DNA from: a virus
Taxonomy: Duplodnaviria; Heunggongvirae; Uroviricota; Caudoviricetes
Reading direction: 5' to 3' (one strand)
Virus record (IMG/VR): IMGVR_UViG_2645727970_000010
Coordinates: 1 to 8,229 of that record
DNA: 8,229 nucleotides
Shown here: in pieces, positions 3,870-8,229 of the stretch
Layout of the letters: every line of letters begins with the position of its first letter
How positions within the stretch are numbered: the stretch's first letter is position 1
The notes under the pieces: model-generated
Told to the model about the DNA's origin: nothing
Database searches by the model: none
The model's input: the letters and a program-made list of their open reading frames with translations, nothing else
Translations under genes and position numbers: made by a program

Positions 3870-4277
3870 TTATTTTATTGATTTATTTTTACGCGCTTTA
3901 AGCATTTCTTCGAAGAGTTTGTTGAAGTTTTCTACTCTTGCGCGCATTTCAGACAGCAAGGCTTCCTGCTCGGAAGATGGAAGAGCATCGAATAATTCGA
4001 TCAATTCTTTGTGGTTGGGAGTTAGCTCTGTTTCCACATGAAGTTCTTGTGCCGGCACTGGTGCCTTGTCTTCGTCACCAAACATTAGCCATGTAGGTGA
4101 GCACTTCAGAGCATCCGCTAAAGCAAACAATCGTTTTCCGACTGGCTGGGTTTCGTCTCTTTCCCATTGTGAAATTGTGACGTGAGCAACTCCAGCGAGG
4201 CGCGCAGCTTCTCGTTGTGTTAAGCGTAATTCTTTTCGTCGCGCCAGAACTCGCTGGCCTAGGGTTCTTGTATCCAT
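3870..4277 (-). CDS. Prophage repressor, XRE-family HTH (CI/RacR-like), 135 aa, no S24 peptidase domain
   Basis: HTH signature LRLTQREAARLAGVAHVTISQWERDETQP. Divergent from a Cro-like gene with palindromic operators in the 77-bp spacer. No obvious SD; a TAGAAT -10 sits 9 nt before the ATG, suggesting a near-leaderless transcript. Too short and without the Ser/Lys motifs of an autocleaving repressor. Confidence 0.85.
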   Translation of the reverse strand: MDTRTLGQRVLARRKELRLTQREAARLAGVAHVTISQWERDETQPVGKRLFALADALKCSPTWLMFGDEDKAPVPAQELHVETELTPNHKELIELFDALPSSEQEALLSEMRARVENFNKLFEEMLKARKNKSIK

Positions 4278-4343: not shown

Positions 4344-4357
4344 AAGAGGGGGCTTTG

Positions 4358-4585
4358 ATGCTTAAAGCTGACGCAATTACTTTTTTTGGCAGCAAAACAA
4401 AGCTTGCCAATGCCGCAGGAGTGAGACTGGCAAGTGTTGCTGCTTGGGGGATACTGGTTCCTGAAGGTCGCGCGATGCGTCTACAGGAGGCATCTGGCGG
4501 GGAGCTTCAGTATGATCCCAAAGTTTATGACGAATATCGTAAGACGAAGCGGGCGGGGCGGTTGAACAATGAAAATCACTCCTGA
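4358..4585 (+). CDS. Cro-like / YdaS-family small HTH regulator (75 aa)
   Basis: ATG at 4358 with AGAGGGGG SD 5 nt upstream. Sequence AITFFGSKTKLANAAGVRLASVAAWGILVPEGRAMRLQEASGGEL resembles the YdaS/Cro pattern. Position is right for the first rightward gene. Confidence 0.7.
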   Translation: MLKADAITFFGSKTKLANAAGVRLASVAAWGILVPEGRAMRLQEASGGELQYDPKVYDEYRKTKRAGRLNNENHS

Positions 4586-5090
4586 ACAGGCTTGTGAGGC
4601 TCTGGATGCCTGGATATGTCGACCAGGAATGACACAGGAGCAGGCGACGATATTAATCACTGAAGCATTCTGGGCTTTGAAAGAGCGCCCGAACATCGAT
4701 GTTCAGCGTGTCACATATGAAGGTGGCGCGGTTGATCAGCGAGCGCTTAGCGTTAATCGAGTGAAGATATTCGAACGCTGGAAGGCTATCGACACTAGGG
4801 ATAAGCGTGAAAAGTTCACAGCGCTAGTGCCTGCAATTATGAAGGCTATCCGGATTAGTGATTTCAGGTTGTATCGTGAGATCAGTGATGGAAAAAGTAT
4901 TACGTACATGATCGCCGGGTTAAATAAAGAATATGGCGATGTGGTGGAATCCGGACTACTTTTTGCAGATCCTGCCGTTGTAGATCGTGAAACTGACGAA
5001 CTTATAGAAAAAGCAATTGCTTTCAAGCTTGCGTATCGACAGCAATACCAACAAAAAGCTGGATGGAATTATGAGTCTTCTTTTTGCTGA
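4569..5090 (+). CDS. YdaT-like / CII-position protein (173 aa), function uncertain
   Basis: ATG at 4569 overlaps the Cro-like 3' end by 17 nt. Sits in the YdaT/CII slot between cro-like and the replication gene. Family assignment is from synteny, not a search. Confidence 0.55.
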   Translation: MKITPEQACEALDAWICRPGMTQEQATILITEAFWALKERPNIDVQRVTYEGGAVDQRALSVNRVKIFERWKAIDTRDKREKFTALVPAIMKAIRISDFRLYREISDGKSITYMIAGLNKEYGDVVESGLLFADPAVVDRETDELIEKAIAFKLAYRQQYQQKAGWNYESSFC

Positions 5091-6036
5091 ACGCCCACTG
5101 GTTATAAACACGCAGCTGGCAATGAAAATCGGCTTAAACGAAGCCATTGTTTTGCAACAACTGCACTACTGGTTGAGAGATACCAACTCCGGTATGGAAT
5201 GTGATGGTGTTCGCTGGATTTATAACACAACGGAACAATGGCTGGAACAGTTCCCATTCTGGTCAGAGTCAACGTTAAAGCGCGCGTTTGCAAGTCTGAA
5301 AACGCTGGGGCTTTTGCGTTGTGAAAAGCTCAATAAATCAAAGCGCGATATGACCAATTTCTACACGATCAACTATGGGAGCGAGCTTTTAGATGGTGGC
5401 AAATTGAACGAATCCATCGGTTCAAAATGCGCCGCTCCATCAGGTCAAAATGACACGATGGAAGAGGTCAAAATGAAACGCTCCATTGGTTCAAAACGAC
5501 CCAATGTCATCGGGTCAAAATGGCCTGATGATCTTACAGAGAATACAACAGAGATTACTACAGAGAATAAAAACACTTTTCGTCCGGAAGCTTCGCAACC
5601 GGACCCGCAGACGACTGAACAGGATTTTTTAACCCGGAACCCCGACGCGGTTGTGTTTAGTGTGAAAAAACGCCAGTGGGGTAGCAGGGAGGATTTGGCG
5701 TGTGCGCAGTGGATTTGGGGGCGGATCGTGAACCTTTACGAACAGGCTGCCAGCGACGATGGAGAGATCATGCGACCAAAAGAGCCTAACTGGACAGCCT
5801 GGGCCAATGACGTGCGCACAATGCGGATGCTGGATGGCAGAAGCCACAGACAAATTTGCGAAATGTTTGGTCGGGTACAGCGGGATCCATTCTGGGTAAA
5901 AAACATCATGAGCCCGTCAAAACTCCGCGAAAAATGGGACGAACTGGTCATCCGCCTGGGACGTTCACCTGTACAGCGTTGTGTGAATCATATTTCTGAA
6001 CCGGATACAGAAATTCCGCCTGGTTTCAGGGGATAA
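5071..6036 (+). CDS. Replication initiation protein, lambda O-like / YdaU-position (321 aa from ATG 5071)
   Basis: Long ORF overlapping the upstream gene by 20 nt. N-terminal winged-helix-like segment (ERPLVINTQLAMKIGLNEAIVLQQLHYWL). Tandem iterons inside the coding sequence produce the SIGSK / SIGSKRP / VIGSKWP protein repeats. The track's TTG start at 5017 is less likely. Confidence 0.7.
   Translation: MSLLFAERPLVINTQLAMKIGLNEAIVLQQLHYWLRDTNSGMECDGVRWIYNTTEQWLEQFPFWSESTLKRAFASLKTLGLLRCEKLNKSKRDMTNFYTINYGSELLDGGKLNESIGSKCAAPSGQNDTMEEVKMKRSIGSKRPNVIGSKWPDDLTENTTEITTENKNTFRPEASQPDPQTTEQDFLTRNPDAVVFSVKKRQWGSREDLACAQWIWGRIVNLYEQAASDDGEIMRPKEPNWTAWANDVRTMRMLDGRSHRQICEMFGRVQRDPFWVKNIMSPSKLREKWDELVIRLGRSPVQRCVNHISEPDTEIPPGFRG
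5413..5585. repeat. Candidate origin of replication: five direct iterons (~17-bp core TCCATCGGTTCAAAATG, period 23-25 bp) plus AT-rich tract
   Basis: Iterons start at 5413, 5436, 5459 (degenerate), 5482 and 5507. The AT-rich tract 5530-5580 carries acagagaata twice. Iterons-then-AT-rich inside the initiator gene is the lambda ori layout. Confidence 0.65.
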
Positions 6037-6076: not shown

Positions 6077-6478
6077 GTGGCAAAAGTTTTTACACAAGAA
6101 GAGCGGGAAAAAATTAAAGGGCAGGTGGTGGAACTCGTGCGCCAGAGCGGTCGTGAGACGTTACGGCAACTGGAAGCTAAAACAGGTGCGACTAGATATC
6201 TGATGAGCGTTCTTGCCAGAGAGCTGGTAGCCAGTGGCGATGTATACAACTCCGGCTACGGGGTATTCCCGTCTGAACAGGCGCGTAAGGACTGGCAAAA
6301 CGCCCGCAAAAAACTCTCGAGGGCAAAGGTGAAGAAACCTGCTGTGGTTGATCCGGACCTTATCTGGTCATTACCTGACGGAGAAATACGTCGCTACGAC
6401 AGTCGTCTGAACATAATCTGTCGCGAGTGCCGGAAGAGTGAAGTTATGCAGCGCATACTGGCATTTTATCAGGGATAA
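6077..6478 (+). CDS. Hypothetical protein (133 aa), GTG start, in the slot normally held by a helicase loader
   Basis: GTG at 6077 with AAGGGGGA SD 3-4 nt upstream; no in-frame ATG until codon 43. Basic, possibly winged-helix N-terminus and CxxC near the C-terminus. Not recognised. Confidence 0.55.
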   Translation: MAKVFTQEEREKIKGQVVELVRQSGRETLRQLEAKTGATRYLMSVLARELVASGDVYNSGYGVFPSEQARKDWQNARKKLSRAKVKKPAVVDPDLIWSLPDGEIRRYDSRLNIICRECRKSEVMQRILAFYQG

Positions 6479-6751
6479 TGTTAGGTATTTTAGACGTTAC
6501 TAGATTAAAAAGCATTAGTTCAGGAGTGAATTGACATTCTCATTTTTCATGGCACAGGGTAGATCTGGCGTGGTTGTCCGCTTTGTACCAGGAGCAGACG
6601 TCTAATATATCTACTTGGTTCTTAAATTCAGTGCATCACTGCAAGCTGCTCAACATCAATAAATTAGGGAATAACTCACAACTTTGACTGTTACCACATG
6701 GCATCATAGTGTTTAGAGCATGCATAAGCACCAACGAGGAGTTTTAACATA

Positions 6752-7339
6752 ATGGGACTGGATGATTTCGGCCTTAGTATCTTAGCCGGACTTCTTGCAA
6801 ACAGACTTGATTTCTCAAAACCGAAGGGCACCTCAGCTCAAATGAATGAAGTTATACCAGATGTGATTGAAGAACCAGACAAATTCTCGCTAAGTGCAAA
6901 TTTGCCAAAAAAATTCAAGACATTCGACGTATGGAGTGATTTGGACAAATTGCTAAAGGTTGTGAAAGAACCCAAAATATCTGTTTTGATAGAGGAGCAA
7001 CCATCAACGTACTATCGGCTCCCTAGCTTGGTTCTGGAATCTCAAATCACAGGGGAATGGTATGTTTTCCCGCGAGGCCGCATGAGTTTTGAGGGCAATG
7101 GAGGTGGCATACAGAACGCAGAAGTAATCTTCAATCAGTTGAAAGAAGAAAATGTTCCGGTGGGAGTATGGGTAATCGATCAAGCTCTTCTCGACCGCCT
7201 CGATAACGGACAAGAATGTTGGCCAACCATACGATTACAAATAGTACCATTCTTGGCCGCACCATCGAGCGAATACCCATGGTTCGAAATACAACGAAAC
7301 GTTGCAAAACTCACAGAATTCCATTTGACTAATGATTAA
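6752..7339 (+). CDS. Hypothetical protein (195 aa), orphan cargo gene in an AT-richer segment
   Basis: Clean ORF, ATG at 6752 with GAGGAG SD 10 nt upstream. Composition is AT-richer than the flanking prophage genes by eye (not computed). No Walker, HEPN, HTH or hydrophobic signature found. Confidence 0.7.
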   Translation: MGLDDFGLSILAGLLANRLDFSKPKGTSAQMNEVIPDVIEEPDKFSLSANLPKKFKTFDVWSDLDKLLKVVKEPKISVLIEEQPSTYYRLPSLVLESQITGEWYVFPRGRMSFEGNGGGIQNAEVIFNQLKEENVPVGVWVIDQALLDRLDNGQECWPTIRLQIVPFLAAPSSEYPWFEIQRNVAKLTEFHLTND

Positions 7340-7620
7340 TAGTGAGCCCTAACAGGATAATGGCACACTGGATATGACCACCTAAGCAGAGGCAGTACAG
7401 GGGTAATAAACTATGAACTCCTGCTTTTCGCTCAAAGCGGACTAGAAGGTTAGCTTGTGTCGGACTTTGCGTATTAAAAGAAGTGCTGGTGGTGACTAGT
7501 GGTTGAGCCCCATTTCCACAGAAAAAATCAGAGAAACTATACCCAATAGTTGCATTGAATCACTGACGAGACAGCCTCATATTCATCAGGACTGGTGTAC
7601 ATCCAATACAGGAGGTTGTG

Positions 7621-7710
7621 GTGCTGGTTCTCAAATGTGCGCTGGCTATTACGGCTGTAATGGCGATTTATTGTCTTGCTATTGTTCTTATGGATCGCCT
7701 TTCTGACTGA
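7621..7710 (+). CDS. Candidate small hydrophobic peptide (29 aa), GTG start
   Basis: Perfect AGGAGG SD (7610-7615), 5-nt spacer, GTG at 7621. Translation (M)LVLKCALAITAVMAIYCLAIVLMDRLSD is one predicted membrane helix. Overlaps the frame-0 track ORF 7503..7706 (TTG start, Cys/Gly-rich). Candidate -35 TTGAAT / -10 CATATT at 7555-7583. Very uncertain. Confidence 0.25.
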   Translation: MLVLKCALAITAVMAIYCLAIVLMDRLSD

Positions 7711-7764
7711 TTTCATATTGGCGAGGTAACGGGAGTTAAGTAGAATGGCTGCGGGTGCTTGAGG

Positions 7765-7800
7765 CTATCTGCCTCAGGCATGAACACCAACGGCAGATAG
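7765..7800. other. Hairpin with 9-bp perfect stem (ctatctgcc / ggcagatag) and 18-nt loop
   Basis: Read directly. A second small hairpin gcgtc-ctgcaa-gacgc (7824-7839) is flanked by direct repeats TTAACATTA (7814-7822, 7840-7848). Could be IS terminus, transposase terminator or the small-ORF transcript 3' structure. Confidence 0.35.
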
Positions 7801-7862
7801 AGAAAAGCCCCAGTTAACATTACGCGTCCTGCAAGACGCTTAACATTAATCTGAGGCCAATT

Positions 7863-8229
7863 TCATGCTAGACACATGTAGGTTAGCCTCTTACGTGCCG
7901 AAAGGCAAGGAGATGTATGGGTCCACCACATATTGCAATTTTTATTCTCTTTTAAAATATATTCCACGGGCGTCATTAGTGCGAGCGCCTTGTGGGGTCT
8001 TTTGCTGTTATACAGCACCAGATATTCCGCCAGCTTCTGGTTAAATAGCGCCAGATCTTCAAAGAGTAAAATCTCATTAAATTCAATAAACTGCTCTCTT
8101 AACGTCCGGTTAAAACGTTCACAGATAGCGTTCATTTTTGGCGTGTAGGGATAGGTCCAGAGGTGTTTGATAGCGGCTTCCTGCAGCGTTTTGTCGAAGT
8201 TTCCCAGGAACTCTTTTCCGTTATCTGTG
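7863..8229 (-). CDS. DDE transposase, rve/integrase-core type (IS481-family-like), C-terminal part; N-terminus beyond window end
   Basis: Hand translation upstream of the track ORF gives ...TDNGKEFLGNFDKTLQEAAIKHLWTYPYTPKMNAICERFNRTLREQF...YNSKRPHKALALMTPVEY, carrying the second D (TDNGKEF) and the E (CERFNRTL) of the DDE triad plus the conserved YNxxRPHxxLxxxTP tail. Frame is open to position 8229. Confidence 0.8.
   Translation of the reverse strand, partial: TDNGKEFLGNFDKTLQEAAIKHLWTYPYTPKMNAICERFNRTLREQFIEFNEILLFEDLALFNQKLAEYLVLYNSKRPHKALALMTPVEYILKENKNCNMWWTHTSPCLSARKRLTYMCLA

Follow-up and report, generated by a model that had tools for sequence, protein, structure and literature searches.

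An exchangeable cassette in an Escherichia coli lambdoid prophage carries a candidate single-gene defence protein

What is the role of a 195-residue protein that lies between the last conserved gene of a prophage backbone and an insertion sequence (IS), and how did its gene come to be there? The question is raised by the first 8,229 nucleotides of the IMG/VR virus record IMGVR_UViG_2645727970_000010, the whole of which we refer to as the window. On its plus strand, an open reading frame (ORF) at 6752-7339, here called ORF195, encodes an acidic protein of 195 aa with a pI of 4.7. An earlier reading of the letters alone (the original prediction) took 6480-7339 to be a unit of foreign composition, wedged between prophage and IS, and proposed that it holds accessory cargo such as a defence or abortive-infection gene. 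By comparison with related elements, ORF195 is the sole payload of an exchangeable cassette of about 870 bp (6576-7442), and the company that this cassette keeps makes its product a candidate defence protein.

The limits of the cassette come from sequence comparison. On the left stands site B (GTCCGCTTTGTACCAGGAGCAGAC, 6576-6599, plus strand), which agrees with 0 mismatches with the consensus GTCCGCT-NTGTGCCANN-AGCGGAC, a pattern of 7-bp inverted arms around a 10-bp centre for which 0 occurrences are expected by chance. On the right stands site A (TCCTGCTTTTCGCTCAAAGCGGAC, 7419-7442, plus strand), with the consensus (G/T)TCCGCT-NNTCGCTCNN-AGCGGAC. The two sites have the arms GTCCGCT and AGCGGAC in common and differ in their 10-bp centres (TGTGCCA in B, TCGCTC in A). 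Homology to a CP4-like island of E. coli O157:H7 that carries the ORF195 gene covers exactly 6571-7442, at 98.5% identity, and homology to an island of Citrobacter braakii covers 6575-7442, at 92% identity; the O157:H7 copy lies beside a gene for a YeeP-like GTPase, in surroundings that include dynamin, patatin and DUF932 genes.

The reciprocal case is provided by phage mEp460_ev081, a close relative of the prophage in the window, in which the flanks and the B and A sites are as in the window and the payload is PD-T7-1 (E 4e-157). The DNA at 6480-6575 (plus strand), which the original prediction had counted as part of the unit, is conserved intergenic backbone outside the cargo, with 97.5% identity to mEp460_ev081 running through 6601. 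The right backbone flank, which leads to hokD (7443-7913, plus strand), is identical in mEp460_ev081 and 97% identical, from 7449 onward, to a strain carrying an AIPR gene. In the latter strain, GN25, the AIPR (Abi-type) gene sits on the same backbone as ORF195, and homology to the window ends at 6594 and resumes at 7449. Its site B is degenerate (GTTGCAGCTTTGTACTAGGAGTGAC) and it has no site A (L004 9581-9604 and 11765-11813); the sites at the boundaries were seemingly lost or eroded in the AIPR replacement. The precise swap between two 24-bp sites, together with the presence of the same cassette in unrelated islands, strongly supports the view that the gene is accessory cargo.

The same sites recur on a broad scale. 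A scan of IMG/VR for the B pattern returned at least 120 contigs with at least 85 B-to-A intervals and at least 50 payload types. Among the matches listed, the payloads mostly consist of one to three genes on either strand, three backbones bear 8-10 payload types each, and five payload types are found in more than one backbone. Two of these three backbones represent the slot between the DUF977 gene and hok in lambdoid prophages, while the third (flank type 2/1) is P2-like, its slot lying between the tail-fibre assembly gene G and the sheath gene FI. The P2 genome has fun(Z) between a B site at 15335-15358 and an A site at 17432-17455. In the islands the units form arrays of the arrangement B-payload-A-18 nt-B-payload-A, one payload of which comprises a 1,229-aa Drt1a reverse transcriptase and a small gene. 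The 86-nt A-18-B junction matches 1,125 of 5,426 complete E. coli genomes and, among the matches listed, falls in unannotated intergenic DNA. Judged by these comparisons, one pair of sites bounds three slots: P2 Z/fun, lambdoid DUF977-hok and the CP4-like island arrays. Other A and B copies in the loci compared are located at L002 7849-7914, L013 3966-4030 and 6782-6847, and L014 6004-6069; the P2 pair lies at 836-859 and 2933-2956 of L151 (phage P2).

How are the payloads replaced? Position-wise identity was mapped over 54 non-redundant cassettes. In the 151 pairs that share the left flank and differ in payload, positions 1-11 of B are 100% identical; position 8 differs between backbones yet is constant within those pairs. 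The bases at positions 16, 17 and 21 depend on the payload, with no difference between cassettes that have the same payload in different flanks. Site A mirrors B, with positions 1-9 tracking the payload and positions 13-24 tracking the right flank. The pattern implies that each site is a hybrid, with the exchange point near its centre (at about positions 12-16). Neither an 'empty' hybrid site (B-left/A-right) nor a circle junction (A-left/B-right) was found in IMG/VR, and simple insertion or excision between A and B is thus without support. The observations fit replacement of the payload through two crossovers, one between B sites and one between A sites, and with their identical arms and different centres A and B look like heterospecific recombination sites.

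Another account, which we consider tentative though not far short of an even chance, is that B and A are conserved linker or insulator sequences and that payloads are swapped by ordinary or phage-recombinase homologous recombination over short homologies. No recombinase gene is consistently adjacent to the cassettes in the loci compared, the prophages encode an exonuclease/RecT-type module that could serve such exchange, and the lack of empty or circle-junction sites in IMG/VR agrees with this account. Mismatched arms are, furthermore, frequent among A and B sites, and the window's own copies form weak hairpins (dG -1.9 kcal/mol for B and -4.2 kcal/mol for A), no better than shuffles, which tells against recombination sites; copies with the consensus sequence fold well (z about -3.8). 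Evenly spread crossovers, however, would not be expected to leave the exchange point at positions 12-16 in every informative comparison and never in the arms. The sites are also shaped like recombinase core sites, with 7-bp inverted arms about a 10-bp centre and the same arms around different centres, and according to a review the repeats on either side of fun 'enable site-specific recombination' (PMC8987985).

If A and B are targets of a recombinase, a possible candidate for the enzyme is a 200-aa protein annotated as a 'site-specific integrase', whose gene lies one gene from the arrays in two CP4-like islands, beside dynamin-family genes (L014 7611-8213; L015 7607-8209), and is absent from prophage contexts. 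The left boundary has a further element, in that TGGCACAGGG at 6550-6559, 16 nt upstream of B, repeats the left half of the site B loop in inverted orientation. Each of the three main phage backbones has the sequence TGGCACAGRG 16-17 nt before B (left flanks in L018, L021 and L151), which makes the left boundary a larger nested palindrome. Two other interpretations of the sites were set aside. The ORF195 copies hinted that the arms of B and A next to the payload are complementary, as remnants of one hairpin borne by the cassette, which did not prove general (Fisher p = 0.21), and a role of the site hairpins as intrinsic terminators is unsupported, there being no T-tract and only weak folding.

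Is the reading frame within this cassette a gene? The ratio of nonsynonymous to synonymous substitution rates (dN/dS, Nei-Gojobori) comes to 0.29 in the comparison with the Citrobacter copy and to 0.14 in each of two others, with the O157:H7 copy and with a metagenomic homologue of 72% identity. Since all three orthologues give values of 0.14-0.29, and since 75 cluster representatives were found, ORF195 is, on this comparative evidence, a real gene under purifying selection and no chance ORF. A Shine-Dalgarno sequence of its own, as had been claimed, is present (GAGGAG at 6736-6741, 10 nt 5' of the ATG). The 5' region of the payload (6600-6751, plus strand) contains a promoter-like element read from the sequence, with a -35 hexamer TTGACT at 6684-6689, a 17-nt spacer and a -10 hexamer TAGTGT at 6707-6712. 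All three parts are identical in the O157:H7 island copy, and a single spacer base is changed in the Citrobacter copy. A consensus scanner did not call the element at its threshold; we infer that it is the ORF195 promoter. The 3' untranslated region (7340-7418, plus strand) moves with the gene, homology to both island copies running on to 7442, and no intrinsic terminator was called in 7340-7442. Besides ORF195, the only ORF of at least 60 aa in the payload is an internal antisense frame of 69 aa, and the conserved adjacent partner gene that defines a type II toxin-antitoxin system is lacking.

The base composition of the gene sets it apart only from some of its neighbours. Its GC content of 0.429, and 0.403 at third codon positions (GC3), lies below the GC/GC3 of the upstream DUF977 gene (0.507/0.515) and O-like gene (0.477/0.512), as the claim of a foreign, AT-richer composition would have it, but is close to that of the repressor (0.458/0.382) and ydaT (0.452/0.414), so that the contrast is modest. 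The GC of ORF195 stands at the 11th percentile among 588-bp tiles of the window, and that of the whole payload (6600-7418, 0.420) is below that of all non-overlapping 819-bp tiles. In six other hosts, too, the family gene has a GC content below that of its locus, which fits a horizontally moving gene.

The position between a replication region (YdaT-like, O-like and DUF977 genes) and an IS was correctly described, and yet the IS is irrelevant to the cargo reading. It belongs to the IS481 family (1,095 bp; annotation and an rve_3 domain), its left part occupies 7914-8229 on the minus strand, and it runs on to about 9008 (L003 coordinates minus 8000). IS-free relatives align to 7913 and resume past the IS, which has a 6-bp duplication (AGGAGA) and whose target was the ribosome-binding (Shine-Dalgarno) region of hokD. 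IS-free sister strains carry the same ORF195 gene. Import of the gene by the IS was rejected, given IS-free strains with the same cassette and a target duplication belonging to the IS itself; the gene predates the IS, which is a later and unrelated insertion. The cargo reading was right in substance, but the evidence for it is comparative, because composition is a weak reason and adjacency to an IS an irrelevant one.

The protein belongs to a family without annotation. ORF195 matches no model in PADLOC (0 families, E up to 1), Pfam, NCBIfam or PHROGs (best E 0.35 in PHROGs), in agreement with the earlier statement that it holds no recognizable motif. PDB sequence and profile searches gave noise only, a profile search of 46 family members found helix-turn-helix (HTH) domains on two fused members and nothing else, and a literature search on the family's protein accessions returned no matches. 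The family forms 16 clusters at 90% identity and, among 1.84 billion proteins, has 75 representatives at 50% identity, and its length (about 190 aa) and architecture are conserved. Residues 1-21 (6752-6814) make up a conserved, short hydrophobic N-terminal motif, MGLDDFGLSILAGLLANRLDF, with a family pattern of roughly F-x-L-x3-A-x3-A-N; the motif occurs on no other ORF among about 150 loci. A variable linker of about 35 residues (22-55), modelled with low confidence, connects it to a conserved alpha/beta domain of about 140 residues (56-195, 6917-7336). Within this domain, E81, E96, W103, F106, G115, G119, G153, W157 and P166 are near-invariant over 46 diverse members, and a G-x-G-G-G loop directly precedes a helix. 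A transmembrane or amphipathic membrane helix at the N-terminus was considered and rejected (maximal Kyte-Doolittle 19-residue mean 0.98; hydrophobic moment of residues 1-22 below 0.1).

The AlphaFold model has a mean predicted local distance difference test score (pLDDT) of 68, with 74-91 in the core, and the order of its strands (b) and helices (a) is b-b-b-a-b-a-(a)-b-a. The sole structure that the C-terminal domain resembles is PDB 1wn9, the hypothetical protein TT1805 of Thermus thermophilus HB8, which superposes on most of the predicted domain. The two are 12-14% identical, 1wn9 does not appear among PDB profile matches at E up to 10, and TT1805, unlike ORF195, has neither the N-terminal peptide nor the linker. 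A Foldseek comparison of the ORF195 model with BFVD gave no meaningful match, and a literature search on TT1805/1wn9 retrieved irrelevant papers only. The check on remote homology and structure proposed with the original prediction thus matched no characterized family and yielded this one likeness in fold. In some relatives the N-terminal part is exchanged: an XRE HTH takes its place in members P0034 and P0078, and a module resembling a ribbon-helix-helix (RHH), as read by eye, in P0073. In another member, P0088 (531 aa), the family domain is embedded in a protein with a C-terminal FliG_C domain.

The ORF195 gene is present in 38 of the 5,426 complete E. coli genomes, and a survey of 185,579 species genomes located the family in 8 organisms, at 10 loci in all. 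These are scattered over several phyla, with Oxalobacteraceae, Aquabacterium, Pseudomonas simiae, Ferrimonas, Collimonas and Pectobacterium from the Beta- and Gammaproteobacteria, and metagenome-assembled genomes (MAGs) of Chlamydiae and Spirochaetota. The Spirochaetota MAG has three family copies on different contigs (L146-L148), which suggests a repeated mobile element. No neighbouring gene is conserved across 12 family contexts, and a conserved partner gene or operon was rejected by comparison of the family loci. At two betaproteobacterial loci, two tightly spaced same-strand genes lie 5' of the family gene, encoding 360 + 320 aa (L140 3778-5825) and 271 + 285 aa (L144 4264-5930); the pairs are non-homologous between the loci and may be lineage-specific operon partners. 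The neighbours of distant homologues include type I restriction-modification (RM), Tmn, AbiE, NsnB, MazF, caspase, YobI ATPase and NERD helicase genes, as well as integrases, TraG and DUF2274. By gene content, the family neighbourhoods are mobile-element- and defence-island-like, and in the loci compared the ORF195 gene proves rare and horizontally spread, with no partner gene conserved beside it.

What, then, does the protein do? Among the matches listed, payload proteins of the slot match PD-T7-1, PD-T7-5, Drt1a, ThsB/TIR, DarT/DarG, an Argonaute-associated nuclease and NsnA, together with PDC-S06/S15/S33/S39/S51/S66, AbiH, AIPR, HEPN, GmrSD and RelA/SpoT. PADLOC matches at E 1e-5 or better were obtained for 7 of 18 sampled payload types, and defence-type domains dominate the small cassettes of one to three genes on phage backbones. 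PD-T7-1 is an experimentally validated anti-phage gene of E. coli (PMC9519451). With PD-T7-1, AIPR and others as its alternatives in the slot, and with homologues beside RM, AbiE, Tmn, MazF and caspase genes, ORF195 is a resident of a defence hotspot. Because the annotated slot alternatives are anti-phage genes and the neighbours of its homologues are defence-like, an argument of guilt by association, we put it at about an even chance that ORF195 is a stand-alone defence protein directed against phages or other mobile elements. The defence part of the original prediction finds partial support in that association and none in homology.

Several observations count against this assignment. Neither by sequence nor by profile does ORF195 resemble any known defence protein, and the likeness to 1wn9 gives no mechanism, because TT1805 is a structural-genomics entry without known function. 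AlphaFold confidence is low for residues 1-51 (below 50) and 169-195, and by simple measures the N-terminal motif is neither a transmembrane helix nor an amphipathic one. A search of the IMG/VR viral contigs with peptide patterns did not find the family. The other 11 of the 18 sampled payload types are unknowns like ORF195, and some B-to-A intervals hold non-defence genes (BCCT transporter, LysR, alkyl sulfatase, dehydrogenases), so that membership of the slot is suggestive and not diagnostic.

The last two points are also the footing of a different explanation, in which ORF195 is a lysogenic-conversion moron with a role in host fitness (stress tolerance, envelope or metabolism) and the slot accepts any cargo. 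The other hotspot of P2, which holds partitioning and toxin genes (Rousset et al., PMC9122126), lends it some further weight. The long intervals with metabolic genes are, however, probably no true cassettes but mis-paired sites or island segments, and the small cassettes on phage backbones carry mostly defence-type domains. Distant homologues in unrelated phyla stand beside RM, Abi and toxin-antitoxin genes, and ORF195 has no signal peptide, transmembrane segment or metabolic domain. We consider a fitness moron unlikely.

Some features would suit a factor acting against other elements or against the host. ORF195 is a small acidic protein without an enzymatic signature, and the O157:H7 and Citrobacter CP4-like islands that carry it also hold antirestriction and DUF932 genes, as might be expected of a protein that counters defence or serves competition between elements, such as an inhibitor of a system of the host or of a rival element. 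Such a role is nonetheless quite improbable: anti-defence genes are typically phage-borne, whereas the family was not seen in the viral contigs; the HTH and RHH relatives look like chromosomal regulators or effectors and not like inhibitors; and the annotated payloads of the slot are defence, not anti-defence, genes.

The exchange of the N-terminal peptide for an XRE HTH or an RHH-like module could alternatively point to a regulatory sensor that acts by sequestration, a truncated cousin of the XRE-family one-component regulators devoid of killing or defence activity. A DNA-binding domain joined to a C-terminal domain is indeed the architecture of one-component regulators and phage repressors. 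HTH fusions are, on the other hand, frequent on defence and toxin effectors, where they serve autoregulation. Most family members, ORF195 included, have no DNA-binding domain, and the HTH-fused member is solitary, with no obvious regulated operon beside it. Of a purely regulatory protein we are very doubtful.

Returning to the defence interpretation, a simplified scheme can be proposed. The ORF195 cassette, with its own promoter-like element and ribosome-binding site, is exchanged as a Z/fun-type unit, payloads being swapped by crossovers at the centre of each boundary site, and the gene would be expressed from the prophage as a defence protein. The TT1805-like C-terminal domain might be a sensing or catalytic module, most plausibly for a phosphate-bearing ligand or a phage component; the proposed basis is the two near-invariant glutamates on neighbouring strands and the GxGGG loop at a helix N-terminus. 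The hydrophobic N-terminal peptide on its flexible linker would serve as a partner-binding or oligomerisation output module, one that some relatives have exchanged for an XRE helix-turn-helix or ribbon-helix-helix-like DNA-binding module. This biochemical mechanism is speculative. That all parts hold jointly, with ORF195 founding a new single-gene defence family (a TT1805-like domain with an interchangeable N-terminal output) and A and B being heterospecific targets of a putative recombinase, in a natural cassette exchange that moves defence genes between CP4-like islands, lambdoid prophages and phages of the P2 type, is rather improbable.

The cassette is carried by an E. coli prophage of the lambdoid, Qin/mEp460-like type. 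The window shares 99.9% identity with part of NZ_CP090612.1, a record of E. coli isolate DCE7, and about 96.6% with prophages of many bovine and Shiga toxin-producing (STEC) strains. The prophage adjoins rspB, as Qin does in K-12. The DCE7 record is described as a 420-kb 'plasmid', pDCE7-1, yet the core chromosomal genes ynfE, speG, ynfA and rspAB surround the prophage; the record may represent a piece of chromosome that was misassembled or mislabelled, or else a chromid of very large size. Annotation and domain scans place the exonuclease, ydfD and dicB genes on the minus strand, followed by an HTH repressor (3870-4277, minus strand), Cro (4355-4585), a YdaT-family gene (4569-5090) and an O-like gene that ends at 6036. 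DicF-like and STnc100-like RNA matches near dicB (2685-2733 and 2478-2687, both minus strand) score slightly under the Rfam gathering thresholds.

The last conserved backbone gene left of the slot is a DUF977 gene (YdaW/LygF-like, 6077-6478, plus strand; Pfam PF06163, E 1.6e-28). The IMG/VR backbones with flank types 0 and 1, like mEp460_ev081, have this gene at the left edge of the slot. To the right, a full-length match to Rfam RF01794 (111.9 bits) marks the sok antitoxin RNA and hok leader at 7753-7919 (plus strand), and 3' of the IS, past the end of the window, come hokD, rem, DUF968, RusA and Q. The IS probably uncouples hokD from its mok/sok leader. The annotated transposase coding sequence (7863 onward, minus strand) reaches about 51 nt past the end of homology to IS-free strains.

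Among known systems, the closest is the Z/fun region of P2. A review describes P2 fun(Z) as AT-rich, non-essential defence cargo passed between phages and bacterial genomes, and credits the inverted repeats that flank Z/fun to Nilsson, Karlsson & Haggard-Ljungquist 2004, Mol Biol Evol 21:1 (PMC8987985). The fun(Z) gene lies between B- and A-type sites of the same consensus as those of ORF195, and the ORF195 unit shares the properties of such a cassette: B on the left, A on the right, and swaps of payload and backbone with break points inside the sites. The differences are that ORF195 is unrelated to Fun(Z) and that its slot is lambdoid, between DUF977 and hok/sok, whereas that of Z/fun belongs to a P2-like phage. 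We infer that the repeats described in 2004 are the same as A and B; the boundary sites have very probably been described already, at least for P2, and the cassette type is probably known from there. In a limited search of the searchable literature, neither the slot in lambdoid prophages nor the arrays in islands nor the mapping of exchange points was found described.

PD-T7-1, in mEp460_ev081, has the same slot, sites and backbone as ORF195 and is likewise a single gene with its own expression signals. The two proteins are without sequence similarity, and PD-T7-1 differs in its length (449 aa), in lying on the opposite strand and in having a PADLOC model. Integron cassettes resemble the present type in being small, mostly promoter-poor or single-gene units arranged in arrays separated by imperfect palindromes. 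ORF195-type cassettes differ from them in having sites on both sides with differing centres and no fixed gene orientation, and ORF195 carries a promoter-like element of its own; no IntI-type integrase or attI is adjacent in the window or the loci, and no circle-junction hybrid site was seen in IMG/VR, so that ORF195 does not qualify as an integron cassette. The lambdoid morons of Juhala et al. 2000 are said to be extra genes between backbone genes that are expressed from the prophage. ORF195 is similar as an additional gene between backbone genes, with a modestly low GC content and with a promoter-like element and ribosome-binding site of its own; it differs in that no terminator was found 3' of the gene and in that it is bounded by palindromic sites and not by a promoter/terminator pair.

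If the defence assignment is true, ORF195 is a candidate for a new one-gene defence system that is easily cloned, at about 0.9 kb with its native signals, from a family that has no annotation anywhere and whose sole structural relative is an orphan structural-genomics entry. The slot could serve as a discovery tool in its own right, a 24-base pattern having led to at least 50 payload types from at least 120 viral contigs, with about 60% of the sampled payloads being unknowns. Like this slot, those described by Rousset et al. 2022 (PMC9122126) are fixed positions in temperate elements at which many alternative small defence systems with native promoters are found. Those hotspots (old/tin near cos, and psu-int in P4) were described without boundary sites; exchange was speculatively tied to cos, and the cause of the high exchange rate was stated as unknown. 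In the ORF195 slot, by contrast, exchange is tied to two 24-bp sites that serve three unrelated backbones, and A and B allow a direct test of how defence genes at fixed positions can be exchanged so quickly.

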